From the NCBI RefSeq assembly GCF_003018255.1, contig NZ_CP027440.1: 64,000 bases of DNA; one strand, written 5' to 3'. The position numbers were made by a program, and so were the translations under genes. This stretch comes from Escherichia coli (lineage in GTDB: Bacteria > Pseudomonadota > Gammaproteobacteria > Enterobacterales > Enterobacteriaceae). The notes beneath the pieces were generated by a model that was not told the origin of the DNA, did not search any database, and saw only the letters and a program-made list of their open reading frames with translations. Positions 4,718 through 55,642 of the stretch are shown here, in pieces (positions within the stretch are counted from its first letter, which is position 1; each line of letters opens with the position of its first letter).

Positions 4718-5746
4718 TTACTGCTGGCGTAGCTGGAGATCCAGCGGCGTTTTGCTGGGTTCGCCGCCAATTTCTCGCGCCAGTTTAGGCACCAGATATC
4801 CCGACACCAGTGTCAGCAACTCACGCATAATCTGCCGTGCTTCGTCATCACTCACCATAAAATGCGCCGCGCCCTGTACTTTATCGAGCACATGCAGGTA
4901 ATACGGCATCACGCCCGCATCGAACAACGCATTACTCAGGTTTGCCAGCGTTTGCGCGTTATCGTTCACACCACGTAACAGAACGCTCTGGTTGAGCAAA
5001 GTAACGCCTACCCGGCGCAACTTAGCCATCGCCTGACGGAATGTTTCATCTACCTCATTGGCATGGTTAATGTGATTCACCAGCAAGATTTGCAGCGTAG
5101 AATGAGAAAAGCGTTCAACCAGCGCATCTGTGATGCGTGCCGGGATCACAATCGGCAGACGGCTGTGAATCCGCAGACGTTTGATATGCGGGATGGCTTC
5201 CAGTTGTGTGAGCAACCAGTCCAGCTCGTGATCTTTCGCCATCAGCGGATCGCCGCCGGAGAAAATCATCTCGTCCAGTTCCGGATGCGCAGCAACATAC
5301 TCAAGTGCAGTCTGCCAGTTACGCTTGTTGCCCTGATTTTCGGCATAGGGGAAGTGGCGACGGAAGCAATAGCGGCAATTTACCGCGCAGCCGCCTTTGA
5401 CCAGCAAAAGCGCCCGGTTGTGGTATTTATGCAACAAACCTGGCACTACGCTGTGCTGTTCTTCCAGCGGGTCGGTGGAGAATCCGGGCGCGACAACAAA
5501 CTCATCTTGCGAGGTAAGTACCTGACGCAAAAGCGGATCGTTCGGATTGCCTTTCTCCATGCGATCGATAAATGAGCGGGGCACACGCAGGGCAAACAGC
5601 TTTTTGGCGCTGCGCCCGGCCAACAGTTTTTCGTCCGCGTCTATATTCAAAAGACGCAGAAGTTCATCAGGATCGGTCACAACATCGGCAAGTTGCGTTA
5701 ACCAATCTTCTCTGGATGGGGTATTTAGGGTTACAATATGCGCCAT
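4718..5746 (-). CDS. epmB: EF-P beta-lysylation enzyme, lysine 2,3-aminomutase-like radical SAM protein EpmB
   Basis: ORF track 342 aa; CAVNCRYC radical-SAM motif; recognised as YjeK/EpmB. Confidence 0.93.
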   Translation of the reverse strand: MAHIVTLNTPSREDWLTQLADVVTDPDELLRLLNIDADEKLLAGRSAKKLFALRVPRSFIDRMEKGNPNDPLLRQVLTSQDEFVVAPGFSTDPLEEQHSVVPGLLHKYHNRALLLVKGGCAVNCRYCFRRHFPYAENQGNKRNWQTALEYVAAHPELDEMIFSGGDPLMAKDHELDWLLTQLEAIPHIKRLRIHSRLPIVIPARITDALVERFSHSTLQILLVNHINHANEVDETFRQAMAKLRRVGVTLLNQSVLLRGVNDNAQTLANLSNALFDAGVMPYYLHVLDKVQGAAHFMVSDDEARQIMRELLTLVSGYLVPKLAREIGGEPSKTPLDLQLRQQ

Positions 5747-5787
5747 TTTGTGGCTTAGCTACCAATTAACAAATTTCAGAGGGCCTT

Positions 5788-6354
5788 ATGGCAACGTACT
5801 ATAGCAACGATTTTCGTGCTGGTCTTAAAATCATGTTAGACGGCGAACCTTACGCGGTTGAAGCGAGTGAATTCGTAAAACCGGGTAAAGGCCAGGCATT
5901 TGCTCGCGTTAAACTGCGTCGTCTGCTGACCGGTACTCGCGTAGAAAAAACCTTCAAATCTACTGATTCCGCTGAAGGTGCTGATGTTGTCGATATGAAC
6001 CTGACTTACCTGTACAACGACGGTGAGTTCTGGCACTTCATGAACAACGAAACTTTCGAGCAGCTGTCTGCTGATGCAAAAGCAATTGGCGACAACGCCA
6101 AATGGTTGCTGGATCAGGCAGAGTGTATCGTAACTCTGTGGAATGGTCAGCCGATCTCCGTTACTCCGCCGAACTTCGTTGAGCTGGAAATCGTTGATAC
6201 CGATCCGGGCCTGAAAGGTGATACCGCAGGTACTGGCGGCAAACCAGCTACCCTGTCTACTGGCGCTGTGGTTAAAGTTCCGCTGTTCGTACAGATCGGC
6301 GAAGTCATCAAAGTGGATACCCGCTCTGGTGAATACGTCTCTCGCGTGAAGTAA
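5788..6354 (+). CDS. efp: Elongation factor P
   Basis: ORF track 188 aa; [25 protein letters not shown]... recognised as EF-P. Confidence 0.97.
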
Positions 6355-6832: not shown

Positions 6833-6900
6833 CGATAGTCACAAAGGTAATAGTTGAAATTCCCCTGCCACCTGGCAAAATATCCGTTCAACCATCAGCT

Positions 6901-6945
6901 TTGCAGGACGACCTGCAAACGCCTCTTTTCACCGGGGACGGCCCC
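6901..6945 (+). promoter_or_regulatory. Guanidine-II riboswitch (mini-ykkC motif) in the gdx leader
   Basis: Two short hairpins with ACGR loops: gcaggACGAcctgc (6903..6916) and ggggACGGcccc (6934..6945), 18 nt before the gdx start. Confidence 0.8.
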
Positions 6946-6963
6946 AATTCTCCGGAGCCTGAT

Positions 6964-9469: not shown

Positions 9470-10602
<1,133 letters not shown>

Positions 10603-22465: not shown

Positions 22466-22541
<76 letters not shown>

Positions 22542-22698
22542 AAATTTGAAAAGTGCTGCAAAGCACAGACCACCCAATCGCAGTATTTCGAATTGCGACA
22601 AGGCGGCAACTGAACGAATCCTTGGGAACTTACAAAAGTAAGTGACTAAGGTGAGTGAAGGCAGCCAAGGCAGTAGCGGTTCGAAAGACGAAGATTAA

Positions 22699-22774
<76 letters not shown>

Positions 22775-22809
22775 AAATTTGAAAGTGCTGTAAAGCACAG
22801 ACCACCCAA

Positions 22810-22885
<76 letters not shown>

Positions 22886-44412: not shown

Positions 44413-46038
44413 GTGCACTGGCAAACTCACACCGTTTTTAATCAACCTATACCATTAAATAACAGCAACTTATACCTGTCTGATGGCGCGCTCTGCGAAG
44501 CGGTAACGCGTGAAGGTGCTGGCTGGGATAGCGATTTTCTCGCCAGTATTGGTCAGCAGTTAGGGACGGCTGAATCCCTTGAACTGGGGCGGCTGGCGAA
44601 TGTGAATCCGCCTGAATTATTGCGCTACGATGCCCAGGGGCGGCGTCTGGACGATGTGCGTTTTCACCCCGCCTGGCACCTGCTGATGCAGGCGCTATGT
44701 ACCAATCGGGTGCACAATCTTGCCTGGGAAGAAGACGCTCGCTCCGGCGCATTTGTGGCGCGCGCGGCGCGTTTTATGTTGCACGCACAGGTTGAGGCAG
44801 GGTCGTTATGTCCGATAACGATGACCTTTGCCGCCACGCCATTGCTGTTACAGATGTTACCCGCGCCGTTTCAGGACTGGACCACGCCGCTGTTGAGCGA
44901 TCGCTACGATTCTCACTTATTGCCAGGTGGGCAAAAACGCGGTTTGTTGATTGGCATGGGAATGACGGAAAAACAGGGCGGTTCCGATGTCATGAGCAAC
45001 ACCACCCGCGCAGAGCGCATGGAAGATGGCTCTTATCGGCTGGTGGGGCATAAATGGTTTTTCTCGGTGCCGCAAAGCGATGCGCATCTGGTGCTGGCGC
45101 AGACTACGGGCGGTTTGTCCTGCTTTTTTGTGCCGCGCTTTTTGCCTGACGGGCAACGCAACGCGATTCGCCTCGAGCGGCTGAAAGATAAGCTGGGTAA
45201 TCGCTCTAACGCCAGCTGCGAAGTGGAGTTTCAGGATGCCATTGGCTGGTTGTTGGGGCAGGAAGGGGAAGGAATTCGTCTGATCCTGAAAATGGGTGGG
45301 ATGACGCGTTTTGATTGCGCCCTGGGTAGCCATGCCATGATGCGCCGTGCATTTTCGCTAGCGATTTATCATGCACATCAACGCCATGTTTTTGGTAATC
45401 CATTGATCCAACAGCCCCTTATGCGTCATGTCTTAAGTCGCATGGCACTTCAGCTTGAAGGGCAAACGGCGTTGCTGTTTCGTCTTGCTCGAGCGTGGGA
45501 CCGGCGTGCCGATGCCAAAGAAGCCCTGTGGGCGCGTTTATTTACGCCTGCGGCGAAATTTGTGATCTGCAAACGAGGTATGCCGTTTGTGGCCGAAGCG
45601 ATGGAGGTGCTGGGCGGCATTGGTTATTGCGAGGAGAGCGAGCTGCCGCGGCTTTACCGGGAGATGCCGGTAAACAGTATTTGGGAAGGTTCCGGTAATA
45701 TTATGTGCCTGGATGTACTGCGCGTGCTCAATAAGCAAGCGGGTGTATACGACTTATTGTCGGAAGCATTTGTGGAAGTGAAAGGGCAGGATCGCTATTT
45801 TGATCGCGCGGTTCGTCGTTTACAGCAGCAGCTGCGTAAGCCAGCTGAAGAACTGGGGCGAGAGATTACTCATCAGCTATTCCTGCTGGGCTGCGGTGCG
45901 CAAATGTTGAAATATGCCTCTCCGCCAATGGCGCAGGCGTGGTGTCAGGTGATGTTAGATACGCGCGGCGGCGTACGGTTGTCAGAGCAGATCCAGAATG
46001 ATTTATTGCTGCGGGCGACGGGAGGAGTGTGTTTGTAA
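44413..46038 (+). CDS. aidB: Adaptive-response protein AidB (acyl-CoA dehydrogenase family)
   Basis: ORF track frame; GTG start at 44413 with RBS gagggag, giving MHWQTHTVFNQPIPL, 541 aa. Confidence 0.93.
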   Translation: MHWQTHTVFNQPIPLNNSNLYLSDGALCEAVTREGAGWDSDFLASIGQQLGTAESLELGRLANVNPPELLRYDAQGRRLDDVRFHPAWHLLMQALCTNRVHNLAWEEDARSGAFVARAARFMLHAQVEAGSLCPITMTFAATPLLLQMLPAPFQDWTTPLLSDRYDSHLLPGGQKRGLLIGMGMTEKQGGSDVMSNTTRAERMEDGSYRLVGHKWFFSVPQSDAHLVLAQTTGGLSCFFVPRFLPDGQRNAIRLERLKDKLGNRSNASCEVEFQDAIGWLLGQEGEGIRLILKMGGMTRFDCALGSHAMMRRAFSLAIYHAHQRHVFGNPLIQQPLMRHVLSRMALQLEGQTALLFRLARAWDRRADAKEALWARLFTPAAKFVICKRGMPFVAEAMEVLGGIGYCEESELPRLYREMPVNSIWEGSGNIMCLDVLRVLNKQAGVYDLLSEAFVEVKGQDRYFDRAVRRLQQQLRKPAEELGREITHQLFLLGCGAQMLKYASPPMAQAWCQVMLDTRGGVRLSEQIQNDLLLRATGGVCL

Positions 46039-46090
46039 GCGTATACGACGCTGGTTTCGATTAACTCAATGAAATATGTGAAAATTGTTA

Positions 46091-46120
46091 GCCGGACAAG
46101 GCGCTCGCGCCGCATCCGGC
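46091..46120. repeat. REP element
   Basis: gccggacaaggcgctcgcgccgcatccggc matches the REP palindromic unit; in the aidB/yjfN convergent gap. Confidence 0.7.
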
Positions 46121-46145
46121 ATTGTTCATTTGCTGTAGATGACAC

Positions 46146-46421
46146 TCACGCATACAGGATCGCCTGTACGCGCCAGTTATCAGGCTGCTGGTCTTCGTAC
46201 ATGGTAATAATGCGGTACCATGACGCACCTTGTTCATCAGCCTTTAACGCCACGATACGTTCCACGTCCTGCGGATCCCCTGAAATATTGCTAACTGAGA
46301 TCTGACCTATTTCATTCAGGCCTGTCACGCAGTCAGCACTGGCGAATTCTGCAGACTGTGCCGTGGCGCTCGCAGGATAAGTCACTAATTGCAGCGAGGA
46401 TGAGGCAAGGAATTGTTTCAT
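46146..46421 (-). CDS. yjfN: DUF1471-family periplasmic protein YjfN
   Basis: ORF track frame; start at MKQFLASSSLQLVT (ATG revcomp 46419..46421), 91 aa. Confidence 0.85.
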   Translation of the reverse strand: MKQFLASSSLQLVTYPASATAQSAEFASADCVTGLNEIGQISVSNISGDPQDVERIVALKADEQGASWYRIITMYEDQQPDNWRVQAILYA

Positions 46422-46569
46422 CGTCAGCTCCATTTTTCGTTTCCCCACATGTTGCAGGGCATTCCATCGCGGTAATAAACGCCCAGGCTTCCAGCCGGTA
46501 ATTTATTGTGCACAGGTAAACGCATAGGGACGCAAAGCAATGTAAAGCTGACTATGTAAGTTGTCTGAT

Positions 46570-46899
46570 TTATTTACGGTACAAAATGGCTTGTGAATAC
46601 CACTGTCCTGTGACGATGGTTTCGTCCACCATGACGACAACGTAATAATCAGCTTTTGCAGCGACAGCTTTCGCTCTGATTTCTGCTAATGCGTCATCCG
46701 GAGAACCCCGAACCATCGTGCTTACGCTACCTATTCGCTGTAACCCTTGCGTCTGGTCGCGGCGAATCTCTTGCGGATGGTCGGTTACTGGCGGTGCTGG
46801 CTGTGGCGTACCTTGTAGTGCGCTACAGGCACTTAACATCAACACCAATAATAAACTGGCAAACCGGTAAATAACGCTATTACGTTTCCTGCTAACCAT
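46570..46899 (-). CDS. bsmA: Biofilm/stress lipoprotein BsmA (YjfO), DUF1471 family
   Basis: ORF track frame; start at MVSRKRNSVIYRFASLLLVLMLSACS (ATG revcomp 46897..46899), 109 aa. Confidence 0.85.
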   Translation of the reverse strand: MVSRKRNSVIYRFASLLLVLMLSACSALQGTPQPAPPVTDHPQEIRRDQTQGLQRIGSVSTMVRGSPDDALAEIRAKAVAAKADYYVVVMVDETIVTGQWYSQAILYRK

Positions 46900-47080
46900 A
46901 GTGTAGTGCCTTATTAATTTAACTTTGGGGGAATGTTCCCGAATTGTTACCTGGTACGCGATTTTCGAATGAAAACGTGATGAAAGCGTAACCCACATCT
47001 CAACATTATGAACTAATACCGCCAGCAGAAACTTGTGCTAAGGATTTCTTCATGTCATACCAGACAAAAAGGAGAGACAG

Positions 47081-47830
47081 ATGATTGAAATAGAATCACG
47101 CGAGCTGGCAGATATTCCCGTTCTTCATGCTTATCCTGTCGGGCAAAAAGATACCCCGTTACCGTGCGCGATTTTTTATCACGGCTTTACTTCGTCCAGT
47201 CTGGTGTATAGCTATTTTGCCGTTGCGCTGGCGCAGGCTGGTTTGCGGGTGATCATGCCGGATGCGCCCGATCACGGTAGTCGTTTTAGTGGCGACGCAG
47301 CGCGGCGGTTAAATCAATTCTGGCAAATCTTGCTACAAAGTATGCAGGAATTCACTACTTTACGTGCGGCAATAGCCGAAGAAAACTGGCTGCGTGATGA
47401 CCGTCTGGCAGTCGGTGGCGCGTCGATGGGCGCGATGACGGCACTGGGAATTACCGCTCGCCACTCCACGGTGAAATGTACCGCCAGCATGATGGGATCG
47501 GGCTATTTTACATCGCTCGCCCGTTCACTGTTTCCACCGCTGATACCTGAAACGGCAGCACAGCAGAATGAATTCAATAACATTGTCGCGCCGCTGGCAG
47601 AGTGGGAAGCGACAAACCACCTGGAACAACTTGCTGACAGACCTCTACTGCTGTGGCATGGCCTTGACGATGACGTCGTGCCTGCCGACGAATCACTACG
47701 TTTGCAGCAGGCCTTAAGCGAGACGGGACGGGATAAACTGCTAACCTGTTCATGGCAGCCAGGCGTGCGTCACCGCATTACGCCTGAGGCGTTAGATGCT
47801 GCCGTGACATTTTTCCGCCAGCATCTTTAA
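47081..47830 (+). CDS. yjfP: Alpha/beta-hydrolase esterase YjfP
   Basis: ORF track 249 aa; GASMG nucleophile-elbow motif. Confidence 0.9.
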
Positions 47831-48582
47831 ACACGCAGAATGCTGACCCCTTGCGCTTCCAGTTGTTGCAGGATTTCCGGGTTAGCATTTTTGCCGGTGA
47901 TCAGCATATCGATTTGATCGGCACGGCTAAAAAGCATTCCCGCGCGTTCGCCGATCTTACTGCTATCAACCAGTACCACCAGTTTCCCTACCACGCTTAG
48001 CATCTTCTGCTCTGCCATTGCCGTCAGCATATCGGTTTTATACAACCCTTCTGCTGTCAGCCCTTTGCCGCTGGTAAACATCCAGTGCCCGGCATAGAGA
48101 CTGTTTTCGCTGCCTTGCGGGCTTAAAGTGATGGACTGACTTTTGTTGTACTGTCCGCCCATAATGATCACGCTGTCATGCTCCTGATCGATCAGGTAAT
48201 TTGCCAGCGGTAGATAATTAGTGATGATTTGCACTGGCTTGCCACACATTTCCCGCCCAAGCAGAAACGCGGTGGAGCCGCAGTTGATGACTACGCTTTC
48301 GCCCGGATTAACCAGCTGCGAGGCCGCTTTAGCAATACGTACTTTTTCATCGTGATTCTGCGCCTGATGCAGATTCATCGGCGTCCAGCGTGGGCGCTGC
48401 TGGGTAATAGCTTCTGCGCCATTGCGCACTTTTTTCAGTTTGCCGCTTTCGTCAAGTTTATTGATATCGCGTCGCGCAGTGGCAGGCGAAATTCCCAGAC
48501 GCTCAACGACTTTCTCAACGGTCACAAAGCCCAATTGTGCGAGCATTTCCAGGAGGATTTGATGTCTTTGTGCTTCAGTCAT
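47827..48582 (-). CDS. ulaR: DeoR-family repressor of the ascorbate regulon UlaR
   Basis: ORF track 251 aa; recognised as UlaR. Confidence 0.93.
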
Positions 48583-48689
48583 GAGCTATTCCGATAAAAT
48601 TTGATTTTTTTAGATGATATTTGAAATAGCCAGGAAATACTACGCCGGATAGCGCGAACTACTCCACGCTATCCGGTACAAGCGACAGA

Positions 48690-49754
48690 TTACAGGAACG
48701 ACTTGAACGGCAGATCCGGTTCAATAGTGAAGCAATCATCGAAACCACGCGGATAGTGGTACTCGAAGTTGTCTTTATCCAGCGGCCAGGTAAATTTGCC
48801 GCCGACCTGCCAGATAAACGGCTTGAAGCCATACTTCAGGCGATCTTTTTTCATCTCCCACAGCACGCGGATCTCTTGCGGATCGGCCTGGAAGTTTGAC
48901 CAGATATCGTGGTGGAACGGGATCACTACTTTAGCATTCAGCGCTTCGCCCATACGCAAGATATCAGCACTGGTCATTTTGTCGGTAATACCGCGTGGGT
49001 TTTCGCCGTATGAACCTAAAGCCACGTCGATCTGATGCTCGTTGCCATGTTTTGCATAGTAGTTAGAGTAGTGGGAATCGCCGCTGTGATACAGAGAACC
49101 GCCCGGTGTTTTGAACAGATAGTTTACTGCGCGATCGTCCATGCCGTCTGGCAGCACGCCAGCCGCTTTTTGATCCGCTGGTAGGGTGATCAGTGCAGTA
49201 CGGTCGAACGCGTCAAGGGCATGAATTTCAATGTCTTTCACTTTTACGACATCGCCCGGTTTGACCACGATGCAACGCTCTTTCGGTACGCCCCAGCCAA
49301 TCCATAAATCCACGCAGGTTTTCGGTCCGATAAACGGTACGTCATCAGCACAGTTCTGCATCACGGCAGCAGCGACGTTGACGTCGATATGATCGTTGTG
49401 ATCGTGAGTTGCCAGTACCGCGTCGATCTGGCGAATCGCAAACGGATCAAGAACAAACGGGGTGGTGCGCAGGTTTGGCTGCAGTTTTTTCACGCCAGCC
49501 ATGCGCTGCATCTGGTGACCCTGTTTCATCAGCGGGTTACCGTGACTTTGTTTGCCAGTACCGCACCAGAAATCAACGCAAACGTTGGTGCCACCTTCCG
49601 ATTTCAGCCAGATCCCGGTGCAGCCTAGCCACCACATCGCGAATGTGCCAGGGGCGACCTGCTCTTGTTCAATTTCTTCATTCAGCCAGCTACCCCACTC
49701 CGGGAAAGTGCTCAGGATCCAGGATTCTCGGGTGATACTTTTCACTTTACTCAT
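48690..49754 (-). CDS. ulaG: L-ascorbate-6-phosphate lactonase UlaG
   Basis: ORF track frame; start at [12 protein letters not shown] (ATG revcomp 49752..49754), metallo-beta-lactamase HxHxDH motif. Confidence 0.93.
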
Positions 49755-51506
<1,752 letters not shown>

Positions 51507-51521
51507 TAAGGAGTTTTGATT

Positions 51522-51827
51522 ATGACCGTACGTATTCTGGCTGTGTGTGGCAACGGACAAGGCAGTTCCATGATCATGAAAATGAAAGTGGACCAGTTTT
51601 TAACCCAGTCGAACATTGACCACACGGTAAACAGCTGCGCGGTTGGCGAATACAAAAGCGAGTTGAGCGGCGCGGATATCATCATCGCTTCTACCCATAT
51701 TGCGGGCGAAATCACTGTGACCGGCAACAAATATGTGGTTGGCGTGCGCAATATGCTCTCTCCTGCCGACTTTGGCCCGAAATTGCTGGAAGTGATCAAA
51801 GAGCATTTTCCGCAGGACGTGAAGTAA
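51522..51827 (+). CDS. ulaB: Ascorbate PTS EIIB
   Basis: ORF track frame; start at ATG 51522 ([16 protein letters not shown]), 101 aa. Confidence 0.95.
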
Positions 51828-51836
51828 GGACGCGCC

Positions 51837-52301
51837 ATGAAATTACGTGATTCGCTGGCGGAGAATAAATCCATCCGCCTGCAGGCTGAAGCTGAGACAT
51901 GGCAGGACGCAGTAAAAATCGGCGTTGACCTGCTGGTGGCGGCGGATGTTGTCGAGCCGCGTTACTACCAGGCGATTCTGGATGCGGTTGAACAGCACGG
52001 TCCGTACTTTGTGCTCGCACCCGGCCTGGCAATGCCGCACGGTCGCCCGGAAGAGGGCGTTAAGAAAACCGGTTTTGCGCTGGTGACGCTGAAAAAGCCG
52101 CTGGAGTTCAACCACGAAGATAACGATCCGGTGGATATCCTCATCACCATGGCGGCGGTCGATGCCAACACTCACCAGGAAGTGGGCATCATGCAGATCG
52201 TCAATCTGTTTGAAGATGAAGAGAATTTCGACCGTTTACGTGCCTGCCGTACCGAGCAGGAAGTACTGGATCTCATTGACCGCACCAACGCGGCAGCTTA
52301 A
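51837..52301 (+). CDS. ulaC: Ascorbate PTS EIIA
   Basis: ORF track 154 aa. Confidence 0.95.
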
Positions 52302-52314
52302 GAAGGAATTGAAA

Positions 52315-52965
52315 ATGTCATTACCGATGTTGCAGGTCGCGCTGGACAACCAGACTATGGATAGCGCCTATGAAACCACTCGCCTGATTGCCGAAGAAGT
52401 CGACATTATCGAAGTGGGTACCATTCTGTGCGTGGGCGAAGGCGTGCGTGCGGTTCGCGATCTGAAAGCGCTTTACCCGCACAAAATCGTACTGGCAGAC
52501 GCCAAAATTGCCGATGCGGGCAAAATCCTTTCTCGTATGTGCTTCGAAGCTAACGCTGACTGGGTGACCGTGATTTGCTGTGCGGATATCAACACAGCTA
52601 AAGGTGCGCTGGACGTGGCAAAAGAGTTTAACGGCGACGTGCAGATCGAACTGACCGGTTACTGGACCTGGGAACAGGCGCAACAGTGGCGCGACGCAGG
52701 CATTGGGCAGGTGGTTTATCACCGCAGCCGTGACGCACAGGCCGCAGGTGTGGCGTGGGGCGAAGCGGACATTACCGCGATCAAACGTCTTTCCGATATG
52801 GGCTTCAAAGTCACCGTCACCGGTGGTCTGGCGCTGGAAGATCTGCCGTTGTTTAAAGGCATTCCGATTCATGTGTTTATCGCTGGTCGCAGCATTCGTG
52901 ATGCCGCTTCTCCGGTGGAGGCCGCACGTCAGTTCAAACGTTCCATCGCTGAACTGTGGGGCTAA
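52315..52965 (+). CDS. ulaD: 3-keto-L-gulonate-6-phosphate decarboxylase UlaD
   Basis: ORF track frame; start at ATG 52315 ([19 protein letters not shown]), 216 aa. Confidence 0.95.
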
Positions 52966-52974
52966 GGAGCGGAT

Positions 52975-53829
52975 ATGTTGTCCAAACAAATCCCGCTTGG
53001 CATCTATGAAAAAGCGCTCCCCGCCGGGGAGTGCTGGCTGGAACGGCTGCAACTGGCAAAAACGTTAGGCTTCGATTTTGTCGAGATTTCGGTAGATGAA
53101 ACGGACGATCGCCTGTCGCGCCTCGACTGGAGCCGCGAGCAGCGTCTGGCGCTGGTGAACGCGATTGTTGAAACCGGCGTGCGCGTGCCGTCCATGTGCC
53201 TTTCTGCTCATCGTCGTTTCCCGCTGGGCAGCGAAGATGACGCAGTGCGGGCGCAGGGGCTGGAGATTATGCGCAAAGCTATCCAGTTCGCCCAGGATGT
53301 CGGTATTCGCGTGATCCAACTGGCGGGCTACGACGTTTACTATCAGGAAGCCAATAACGAAACGCGTCGTCGTTTCCGTGACGGCCTGAAAGAGAGCGTT
53401 GAGATGGCAAGCCGCGCGCAGGTGACGCTGGCGATGGAGATCATGGATTACCCGTTGATGAACTCCATCAGCAAGGCGCTGGGTTACGCGCACTATCTTA
53501 ACAACCCGTGGTTCCAGCTCTACCCGGATATCGGCAACTTGTCGGCGTGGGACAACGACGTGCAGATGGAGTTGCAGGCCGGGATCGGGCATATCGTCGC
53601 GGTGCATGTGAAAGACACCAAACCAGGCGTCTTCAAAAACGTCCCGTTTGGCGAAGGTGTAGTGGATTTCGAACGTTGCTTCGAAACGCTCAAACAGAGT
53701 GGTTATTGCGGGCCGTACCTGATTGAGATGTGGAGCGAAACGGCGGAAGACCCGGCGGCAGAAGTGGCGAAAGCGCGTGATTGGGTGAAAGCGCGCATGG
53801 CCAAAGCCGGCATGGTGGAGGCGGCATAA
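52975..53829 (+). CDS. ulaE: L-ribulose-5-phosphate 3-epimerase UlaE
   Basis: ORF track 284 aa. Confidence 0.95.
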
Positions 53830-54515
53830 TGCAAAAGCTAAAACAGCAGGTATTTGAAGCCAATATGGATCTGCCGCGCTACGGGCTGGTGACCTTTACC
53901 TGGGGCAACGTCAGCGCCATTGACCGCGAACGCGGGCTGGTGGTGATCAAGCCCAGCGGCGTTGCCTACGAAACCATGAAAGCAGACGATATGGTGGTGG
54001 TTGATATGAGCGGCAAGGTGGTGGAAGGGGAGTATCGTCCGTCTTCCGACACCGCGACGCATCTTGAACTCTACCGCCGTTATCCGTCGCTTGGCGGCAT
54101 TGTCCATACCCATTCCACGCATGCCACCGCATGGGCGCAGGCGGGGCTGGCTATCCCGGCATTAGGCACCACGCACGCTGACTACTTCTTTGGCGATATC
54201 CCCTGTACGCGCGGGTTAAGCGAAGAAGAAGTGCAGGGGGAATACGAGCTAAACACTGGCAAAGTGATTATCGAAACGCTGGGTGACGCCGAGCCGCTGC
54301 ATACGCCGGGAATTGTGGTGTATCAGCACGGGCCATTCGCCTGGGGGAAAGATGCTCACGATGCGGTGCATAACGCGGTGGTGATGGAAGAAGTGGCGAA
54401 AATGGCGTGGATTGCCCGCGGCATTAACCCGCAACTGAATCACATCGACAGCTATCTCATGAATAAACACTTCATGCGTAAGCACGGTCCCAACGCCTAT
54501 TACGGGCAGAAGTAA
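53829..54515 (+). CDS. ulaF: L-ribulose-5-phosphate 4-epimerase UlaF
   Basis: ORF track frame; start at ATG 53829 overlapping the ulaE stop (TAATG), 228 aa. Confidence 0.95.
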
Positions 54516-54572
54516 AACACGCGCTGCGGAGATTTCCTTCTTCGGGAGATAACTGGTCTAAGTCCGCAGCCG

Positions 54573-54603
54573 TTTTTCAAAAAAAGCCCCCTGAAAAGGG
54601 GGC
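54573..54603 (-). terminator. Rho-independent terminator of yjfY
   Basis: Hairpin gccccc-tgaaaa-gggggc (54586..54603) with T-tract on the minus strand. Confidence 0.75.
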
Positions 54604-54643
54604 AAAGCAAACTATGGCAATGTTTCGTTGGTTATACCTGGTG

Positions 54644-54919
54644 CTAGCGATAAATATCCGCGCTGGCGTGCATATTGCCGTTACTCCCCGGTTCCCGCAT
54701 CAGAATCACGTGGTAGTACGTTGCGCCCTGCGCATCTGTCTCTTCATTTAATGCCTGACGCGCTTCGCTTTCAGTGGCGAAATTATGATTGATATAAATC
54801 ACGCCTAAGCTTTGCACATCGTCCATATTTCTGGCCTGGTGGTTATTAATTTCAATGGCTGCCCATGTATTTGCACTTAGCAAAAGCACAGCCAGAAGGG
54901 CTAAAACACGGCTGAACAT
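54644..54919 (-). CDS. yjfY: DUF1471-family periplasmic protein YjfY
   Basis: ORF track 91 aa; signal peptide MFSRVLALLAVLLLSANTWA. Confidence 0.85.
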   Translation of the reverse strand: MFSRVLALLAVLLLSANTWAAIEINNHQARNMDDVQSLGVIYINHNFATESEARQALNEETDAQGATYYHVILMREPGSNGNMHASADIYR

Positions 54920-55228
54920 AGATACCTCCTCGACGGCTGACTTTGTGTGCTCTCCTCTTGTGGTGATCTTCTGATTTAATTTTAATCAATGATAAAGAAG
55001 TGGATGGTGACCATTTCTGATGCAGTTGTTCAAAAAAACACCATGATGAAGTGTGATGAACTTCAAATCAGCGTGTTAGTACGATTTGGTGAAGGATGAG
55101 ATTTATTTGTCGGCTGGCCTTGAGTTTAGCGGGGTATGTCAGTACTATAACGCGTCATTTTTCAGCCGACCTTTAACACGTTCCTTGCCTCCCCGGGATT
55201 CGGCTGACCCAGACAGGAGGCTGAATAA

Positions 55229-55642
<414 letters not shown>

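Follow-up and report, generated by a model that had tools for sequence, protein, structure and literature searches.

Three small genes of the DUF1471 family, yjfN, bsmA (also named yjfO) and yjfY, lie close together in the window analyzed here, a 64,000-nt stretch of Escherichia coli DNA (RefSeq assembly GCF_003018255.1, contig NZ_CP027440.1). A sequence-only reading of the window had described them as periplasmic paralogs of about 90 to 110 residues within 9 kb, with signal peptides and a shared C-terminal motif, and had interpreted them as a local expansion of a stress and biofilm family next to the ascorbate regulon. The three open reading frames match the RefSeq coding sequences yjfN, bsmA and yjfY exactly, and are the equivalents of K-12 b4188, b4189 and b4199. 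Positions and sizes are as described (Table 1; minus-strand coordinates are given relative to the window, with gene ends taken from the list of open reading frames): all three genes share the minus strand, the span from yjfY to yjfN is 8,774 bp, and the products are small proteins with a single domain.

Family membership was judged with Pfam model PF07338 (YdgH/BhsA/McbA-like, formerly DUF1471; 55 positions, gathering score 27 bits). YjfN, BsmA and YjfY score 63.5, 56.9 and 71.6 bits, respectively, and cover the full model each time. As all three pass, the shared domain, whose lack the sequence-only reading had named as the outcome that would speak against it, is present. BsmA also scores 152.7 bits against the NCBIfam equivalog NF011433 (cutoff 100), so that by PF07338 and NF011433 the assignment to a stress and biofilm family is correct. 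RefSeq names the protein "biofilm peroxide resistance protein BsmA" on an E. coli chromosome with 100% identity to the window, and it is "putative lipoprotein BsmA" in the K-12 annotation. A six-frame scan of the 64-kb window with the family HMM returned the three known domains only, with no further copy or remnant; a fourth copy or pseudogene in the window was accordingly rejected. Compared with K-12, YjfY is identical, BsmA carries a single substitution (K79R), and YjfN is 98% identical, with both changes (L4F and P8S) in the signal region and Ala91 kept. Over bases 45900-47100, strain JNE23-011 is 100% identical to the window, and this stretch is present in 5,424 of 5,426 complete E. coli genomes; the whole 8.8-kb block is unbroken in 5,346 of the 5,426. 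We conclude that yjfN, bsmA and yjfY are genuine single-domain DUF1471 genes that belong to the core genome of E. coli and had been catalogued before. In a separate comparison of positions 46146-54919 with the 5,426 E. coli genomes, only 2 reached an identity of at least 99%, and 5,418 fell in the 95-99% band; the explanation is either some divergence of the lineage to which the window strain belongs or an unusually high variability of the ula region.

Much of this is already known. Eletsky et al. (2014) listed YjfN, YjfO and YjfY among about 12 DUF1471 subfamilies and took the adjacency of yjfN and yjfO as evidence of gene duplication (PMC4092069). The genes, the family, two of the three functions and this adjacency are thus found in the literature and in RefSeq. 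The question of interest is how the three genes came to lie together. Our comparison set comprised ten K-12 DUF1471 genes, with 12 E. coli DUF1471 domains. When ten genes were placed at random on 4.64 Mb, three fell within 8.8 kb in 0.13% of 400,000 trials (P = 0.0013), and the probability of three within 2 kb was 7e-5. The clustering of the three genes is real and exceeds chance.

Table 1. Positions of the DUF1471 genes, their surroundings and other features of the 64,000-nt window.
Feature	Position	Strand	Remarks
yjfN	46146..46421	-	91 aa, single DUF1471 domain, ends in Ala91; RefSeq "DUF1471 family protease activator YjfN"
bsmA (yjfO)	46570..46899	-	109 aa from the annotated ATG; open frame runs on to 46998
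yjfY	54644..54919	-	91 aa, DUF1471; RefSeq "DUF1471 family protein YjfY"
yjfP	47081..47830	+	esterase gene; sole gene between yjfY and bsmA-yjfN in the ula-free arrangement
ula regulon (ulaR, ulaG, ulaABCDEF)	47827..54515		variable block between yjfP and yjfY
terminator-like GC-rich hairpin GCCCCCTGAAAAGGGGGC	54586..54603		just downstream of the yjfY stop codon
bsmA-yjfN spacer	46422..46569	-	148 bp; putative yjfN promoter region
CpxR-box-like site	46532-46546		GCAAAGCAATGTAAA on the + strand; TTTAC-N5-TTTGC in the yjfN sense
-10-like CACAAT	46505-46510	-	in the bsmA-yjfN spacer
yjfN Shine-Dalgarno GGAG	46428-46431	-	
REP-like GC-rich palindrome GCCGGACAAGGCGCTCGCGCCGCATCCGGC	46091-46120		between convergent aidB and yjfN
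Guanidine-II (mini-ykkC) riboswitch	6900-6946	+	above the Rfam gathering score
three tandem tRNA genes	22466-22882	+	identical scores, above the Rfam gathering score
RpsF leader	55165-55249	+	directly upstream of rpsF, above the Rfam gathering score

Besides position, the three proteins share a structural character. The number of residues between two invariant alanines is 20 in all 115 YjfN, in 121 of 123 BsmA and in all 39 YjfY sequences, compared with 17 in almost all YhcN, YbiJ, McbA, BhsA, YahO and RclB sequences. The loop of YjfN, BsmA and YjfY hence has three residues more than that of the remaining six single-domain E. coli paralogs. This indel splits the family into two structural classes; among the single-domain proteins of E. 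coli, only these three have the long loop.

Conventional sequence comparison, which the sequence-only reading had proposed as a check, connects two of the three, and does so weakly. In BLASTP, YjfN and BsmA are 31% identical over 85 residues (E = 8e-9), and YjfN is the closest E. coli relative of BsmA by both BLASTP and hhalign; BsmA and YjfY share 22% identity (E = 1e-3). Neighbor-joining trees pair YjfN with BsmA at 53% bootstrap for the 12 E. coli domains and at 41% for a set of 74 domains, in which the positional groups are each monophyletic (BsmA 93%, YjfY 73%, YjfN 51%). Neither the trees nor the hhalign profile comparisons resolve the deep nodes, because the domain offers only 68 usable columns.

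The neighborhood of the genes was followed across species. In a profile search of 1.84 billion cluster representatives at 50% identity (HMMER), there were 582 matches at E<=1e-3, and on contigs with distant representatives of the family yjfP, bsmA and yjfN remain together; one Serratia-like contig has yjfY, yjfP, bsmA and yjfN inside 2 kb, with the ula genes absent. Loci were then collected by a DNA-pattern scan that used the C-terminus of BsmA as pattern and one genome per species (at least 120 loci), and genes were mapped onto them by tblastn; all counts that follow are among the loci listed. Four of the 127 loci screened by tblastn lack every query gene, and four pattern matches come from genomes outside Enterobacterales; we infer that these are the same four, i.e. 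chance matches to the pattern. The genus-named loci that have the genes all belong to Enterobacteriaceae or Yersiniaceae, in agreement with a family restricted to Enterobacterales; a few metagenome-assembled genomes are labeled with a family or phylum only. According to Pfam, the proteins of the Serratia and Kluyvera loci are members of the family.

Three arrangements were found. In 47 loci, all from Enterobacteriaceae, ula lies between yjfP and either yjfY or rpsF. A compact order without ula, rpsF< yjfY> yjfP< bsmA> yjfN>, is present in 27 loci, 9 from Yersiniaceae (8 Serratia and Yersinia ruckeri) and 18 from Enterobacteriaceae (Kluyvera, Buttiauxella, Raoultella, Cedecea colo, Shimwellia and several Enterobacter species). 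Another 7 loci have neither ula nor yjfY, so that rpsF adjoins yjfP (Siccibacter, Intestinirhabdus, Edaphovirga, Chimaeribacter and two Serratia). Together, ula is absent from the site in 34 loci for which that side of yjfP is covered, including 12 of 12 informative Yersiniaceae, and its presence varies within Kluyvera, Buttiauxella, Cedecea, Raoultella and Enterobacter. The median span from yjfY to yjfN is 1,984 bp in the 26 ula-free loci that have all four genes, which come from both families, and 8,690 bp in 9 loci with ula. As both families have the compact form and only Enterobacteriaceae have ula, the compact triad appears to be ancestral, and we infer that the ula block is a later insertion into an older three-gene locus. 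In the window, the 3' ends of yjfP (+) and ulaR (-) share 4 bp (47827-47830), so that nothing separates the ula block from the yjfP stop codon. An alignment of the ula junctions revealed no recognizable insertion scars, only the positionally conserved hairpin after yjfY, for which Kluyvera and Raoultella have a counterpart at the matching place between yjfY and yjfP. As a side observation, the ula regulon fills exactly the 3'-3' junction of yjfP and yjfY.

These data correct the sequence-only reading on one point: the ascorbate regulon is not next to the paralogs but between them, and its presence there is incidental. A functional tie, with the paralogs co-regulated with the ula regulon or serving ascorbate utilization, would draw on physical proximity in E. 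coli only, and we find it barely credible. The 34 loci without ula at the site keep their DUF1471 genes, the paralogs form separate transcription units in orientations that are incompatible with the ula operons, and the signals known to feed into them come from Cpx, σS, and plants or biofilms. Synteny effectively refutes the idea, and there is no link of the paralogs to UlaR or ascorbate.

A more serious alternative is that the three genes are co-located without a common local origin, as separate ancient subfamilies that were brought close by rearrangement or independent insertion. Several observations pull in this direction and weigh against local expansion. BLASTP produced no alignment at all between YjfN and YjfY, and both score highest against the unlinked YhcN. 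The deep phylogeny does not unite the three: beyond the YjfN-BsmA pair with its 41-53%, the three-way clade reaches only 7% bootstrap in both trees. SrfN, the nearest solved relative of YjfY, is encoded elsewhere in Salmonella (PMC4092069). The loop is not exclusive either, as YdgH domains also have 19-21 residues in all but one sequence, SrfN is intermediate with 18, and 20 residues are found in 2 of 16 YhcN-group and 1 of 17 BhsA-group sequences, so that the character may have arisen repeatedly. Finally, the locus sample was itself picked by a BsmA pattern, and outgroup comparison is all that gives the ula event its direction. On the other side, three of ten genes inside 2 kb are hardly expected by chance, as calculated above, the three genes share one strand, and the long-loop single-domain paralogs are exactly these three, which is 1 of 84 possible picks of 3 from 9. 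The affinity to YhcN also loses weight on closer inspection: YhcN scores high with nearly every subfamily in hhalign and thus resembles a consensus-like hub more than a specific relative. We consider a separate origin unlikely.

A local origin of the paralogs is likely on the basis of position and indel, while the trees are weak and favor the yjfN-bsmA pair alone; the claim of a local paralog expansion thus stands on these two characters, and its sequence support is poor. Overall, we think it probable that the genes represent an ancient compact DUF1471 array that was locally duplicated, later split by ula, and then diverged. The ancestral array would have been rpsF< yjfY> yjfP< bsmA> yjfN> aidB<, and would most likely go back to a "long-loop" DUF1471 gene that duplicated locally before Enterobacteriaceae and Yersiniaceae diverged. 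In the lineage to Escherichia, Salmonella, Citrobacter and Klebsiella, the ula block (~6.7 kb) would then have arrived between yjfP and yjfY, so that a cluster of about 2 kb became one of 8.8 kb.

The divergence is visible at both ends of the proteins. With a signal-peptide core score defined as the maximum Kyte-Doolittle value over 9 residues, YjfY has a canonical Sec signal peptide (...TWA|A, score 3.44). The sequence-only reading had given all three proteins a signal peptide. BsmA has a lipobox instead, and the core of YjfN is atypically weak. Its score of 1.28 is the lowest among the E. coli paralogs (the other eight single-domain paralogs range from 2.0 to 3.4) and compares with a median of 2.13 over 100 orthologs, among which Escherichia is fourth lowest and a few other genera are equally weak. 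The cleavage motif A-T-A|Q is nevertheless present. In Escherichia the signal peptide is MKQFLASSSLQLVTYPASATA|Q, and its core is unusually polar when set against that of the Citrobacter or Salmonella orthologs, MKQSLALSSLLLSAGLVSTTA|Q. A small inversion in the signal-peptide codons of E. coli yjfN was considered and dropped, as the DNA alignment of orthologs shows dense substitutions only.

At the opposite end, the described ILY/IYR motif is indeed present; it does not close the proteins in every case, since 0-2 residues follow it. YjfN ends in ...AILYA, BsmA in ...AILYRK (orthologs mostly in K, R or Q) and YjfY in ...ADIYR (orthologs in R). Of 104 YjfN orthologs, 99 (95%) have A, V or L as their last residue, and YjfN alone among the E. 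coli paralogs ends in Ala, the others ending in K or R. Kim et al., writing in J Bacteriol in 2018 (200:e00519-17), reportedly described YjfN as a "suicide activator" of DegP, which activates the protease and is itself degraded. PMC12096828 and bioRxiv 10.1101/2024.12.25.630354 describe YjfN as periplasmic and state, citing Kim et al. 2018, that its hydrophobic C-terminal Ala engages DegP. The YjfN of the window retains this Ala91. Judging by the residue statistics, the hydrophobic C-terminus needed for DegP activation appears to be a conserved trait specific to the YjfN subfamily. BsmA (...YRK) and YjfY (...YR) have no hydrophobic residue at this place and are therefore unlikely to act on DegP in the way of YjfN. 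In our scheme, YjfN would be exported to the periplasm, where, following the literature, Ala91 would bind and activate DegP and YjfN would be degraded in the process. Four loci lack yjfN (Yersinia nurmii, Ewingella, Serratia rubidaea and Chimaeribacter coloradensis). There, aidB follows bsmA directly, or, in Serratia rubidaea, yjfC and then aidB; the DegP-activator paralog would thus be dispensable or lost in some Yersiniaceae.

The fold was addressed for YjfN only, with an AlphaFold2 model built on a 12-sequence paralog alignment (pLDDT 86 overall and >90 across the domain) and Foldseek comparison. The best matches were 2M2J (YdgH domain I; TM-score normalized to target length 0.81) and 4EVU (YdgH domain III; TM-score with the same normalization 0.88, rmsd 1.5 Å), together with SrfN (2JNA and 2MA8). 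YjfN is thus predicted to have the mixed α+β fold of the solved DUF1471 members (SrfN, YahO, and YdgH I and III). Single-sequence searches of the PDB with YjfN and BsmA found no relative, the one match of BsmA, to a ribosomal protein, being discarded as noise; profile and fold searches did find relatives. The nearest solved relative of YjfY is Salmonella SrfN, 2JNA (E = 1e-6). In comparison with the published account of the family (PMC4092069), all three window proteins are single-domain members, the YjfN model has the family fold, and we see no family-level difference. What goes beyond that account is the single-domain long-loop class, the inclusion of yjfY in a presumably ancestral compact locus, and the hydrophobic C-terminus unique to YjfN.

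For BsmA, the term "periplasmic" is inexact, in contrast to YjfY with its canonical Sec signal peptide. A lipobox, defined as [LVI][ASTVI][GAS]C closing a hydrophobic signal sequence, is present in BsmA (L22-S23-A24-C25, preceded by the core ASLLLVLML) and in 109 of 119 orthologs. Because of the lipobox LSA|C25, BsmA is predicted to be a lipoprotein rather than soluble in the periplasm, and the +2 rule (Ser26) should send it to the outer membrane. Weber et al. are said to have introduced BsmA/YjfO in 2010 as a biofilm stress and motility protein; it is linked to resistance to peroxide and acid in biofilms. As a system, the BsmA of the window does not differ from the BsmA/YjfO described by NF011433. 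In our scheme, BsmA would be anchored in the outer membrane through a lipid on Cys25, would be expressed from a σS-bound promoter and would contribute to the reported peroxide and acid tolerance in biofilms. That the functions of YjfN and BsmA are known to us from secondary citations (of Kim 2018 and Weber 2010) counts against the scheme.

YjfN would be transcribed from a promoter of its own in the bsmA-yjfN spacer. Counting of CpxR boxes in the window gave 5 observed against 2.9 expected, which is not significant, and the argument from this count alone was rejected in favor of a comparative footprint. The site at 46532-46546 conforms to the GTAAA-N5-GTAAA consensus with 1 mismatch. A box at this place with at most 1 mismatch is found in 95 of 107 orthologous spacers, compared with 0.8% of shuffled ones. 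Across the range from Escherichia to Serratia the two pentamers do not change, in contrast to the N5 between them, and some 21 nt further downstream lies a conserved TGCACAAT. The conserved box and the -10-like site probably constitute a Cpx-dependent yjfN promoter. One transcriptomic observation agrees with this assignment and one binding study does not: yjfN belongs to the CpxR iModulon, but is not listed as a direct CpxR target in the ChIP-exo study (PMC7657598). The minus strand of the spacer showed no hairpin that resembles a terminator. A scan of 45900-47200 for consensus promoters found no σ70-like site, and is uninformative for promoters that depend on σS or an activator.

The other two genes have different inputs. 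The bsmA promoter forms an open complex only with the σS holoenzyme in vitro, although the in vivo rpoS dependence of E. coli bsmA is not clear-cut (PMC4447067). The yjfY gene is served by an RpoD promoter of its own that diverges from rpsF (PMC3946193), and is strongly induced on radish sprouts (logFC 7.5; PMC4048457); the latter paper cites earlier reports that yjfY is induced on lettuce and active in biofilm growth. YjfY would accordingly act as a soluble periplasmic protein that is made from its own promoter on plant surfaces and in biofilms. With a Cpx-like box, σS and a separate promoter, the three paralogs look subfunctionalized.

Separate regulation also bears on the possibility that the linkage of yjfY, yjfP, bsmA and yjfN, whatever its origin, is kept because the products work in a common pathway of the envelope, such as one that joins an esterase to modulators of proteases or outer-membrane proteins. 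The four-gene order is kept from Escherichia to Serratia and Yersinia ruckeri, yjfP always sits between the paralogs, and the RcsF-like fold has inspired the hypothesis that DUF1471 proteins act on outer-membrane proteins (PMC4092069; PMC12096828). However, the promoters are separate and the regulators differ, yjfY is missing in 8 and yjfN in 4 loci (the latter in Yersiniaceae) that retain the neighbors, the ula block splits the group without apparent harm, and double mutants of ydgH with yjfN or bsmA have no compound defect (PMC11705850). We are doubtful of a functional module as the reason for the linkage, and favor the local array described above.

Local groups of DUF1471 genes are not confined to this locus. 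In K-12, ybiJ and mcbA form a second local pair, 4.1 kb apart and 47% identical, and Salmonella has another adjacent pair in yhcN and a ycfR-like gene (PMC4092069). The family as a whole tends to local expansion. The yjfY/bsmA/yjfN set differs from these pairs in being older, far more diverged (0-31% identity) and interrupted by yjfP and ula. Between ybiJ and mcbA (5666-5926 and 9797-10057 of our locus L003), we noted ybiI, ybiX and fiu. The small RNAs ZbiJ and BhsB are annotated at or just beyond the 3' ends of ybiJ and bhsA, respectively.

Two envelope stress proteins resemble the paralogs in part. The fold of CpxP is unrelated to the DUF1471 fold. CpxP, a DegP adaptor, is induced by Cpx, as YjfN probably is too, and like YjfN it is degraded by DegP, in its case together with its substrate (bioRxiv 10.1101/2024.12.25.630354). 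RcsF (2Y1B), an outer-membrane lipoprotein and stress sensor, is the next structural match of the YjfN model after the DUF1471 structures (E = 3.6e-3); it is a lipoprotein like BsmA, without sequence relationship to YjfN (12% identity), and the similarity to the RcsF fold had already been noted for the family (PMC4092069; PMC12096828). We do not claim that the paralogs belong to either system.

The observation is correct, but it is an ordinary one at the level of annotation with little weight as a discovery, and the interpretation given in the sequence-only reading is borne out in part. New, though incremental, are the presumably ancestral compact triad, the variability of the ula block, the class of long-loop proteins, the conserved CpxR-like box and the hydrophobic C-terminus of YjfN. 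Their value lies in the leads that they provide for the molecular activity of YjfY and the mechanism of BsmA. By analogy, one could go further and regard yjfY-yjfP-bsmA-yjfN as an ancient envelope-quality-control module, in which the long-loop proteins would modulate periplasmic proteases or outer-membrane proteins with YjfP as a partner; we hold this to be rather improbable. If it were true, the members would have become differentiated by their anchoring (soluble or lipid), by their C-terminal residue, and by their regulator (Cpx, σS, or a plant or biofilm signal).

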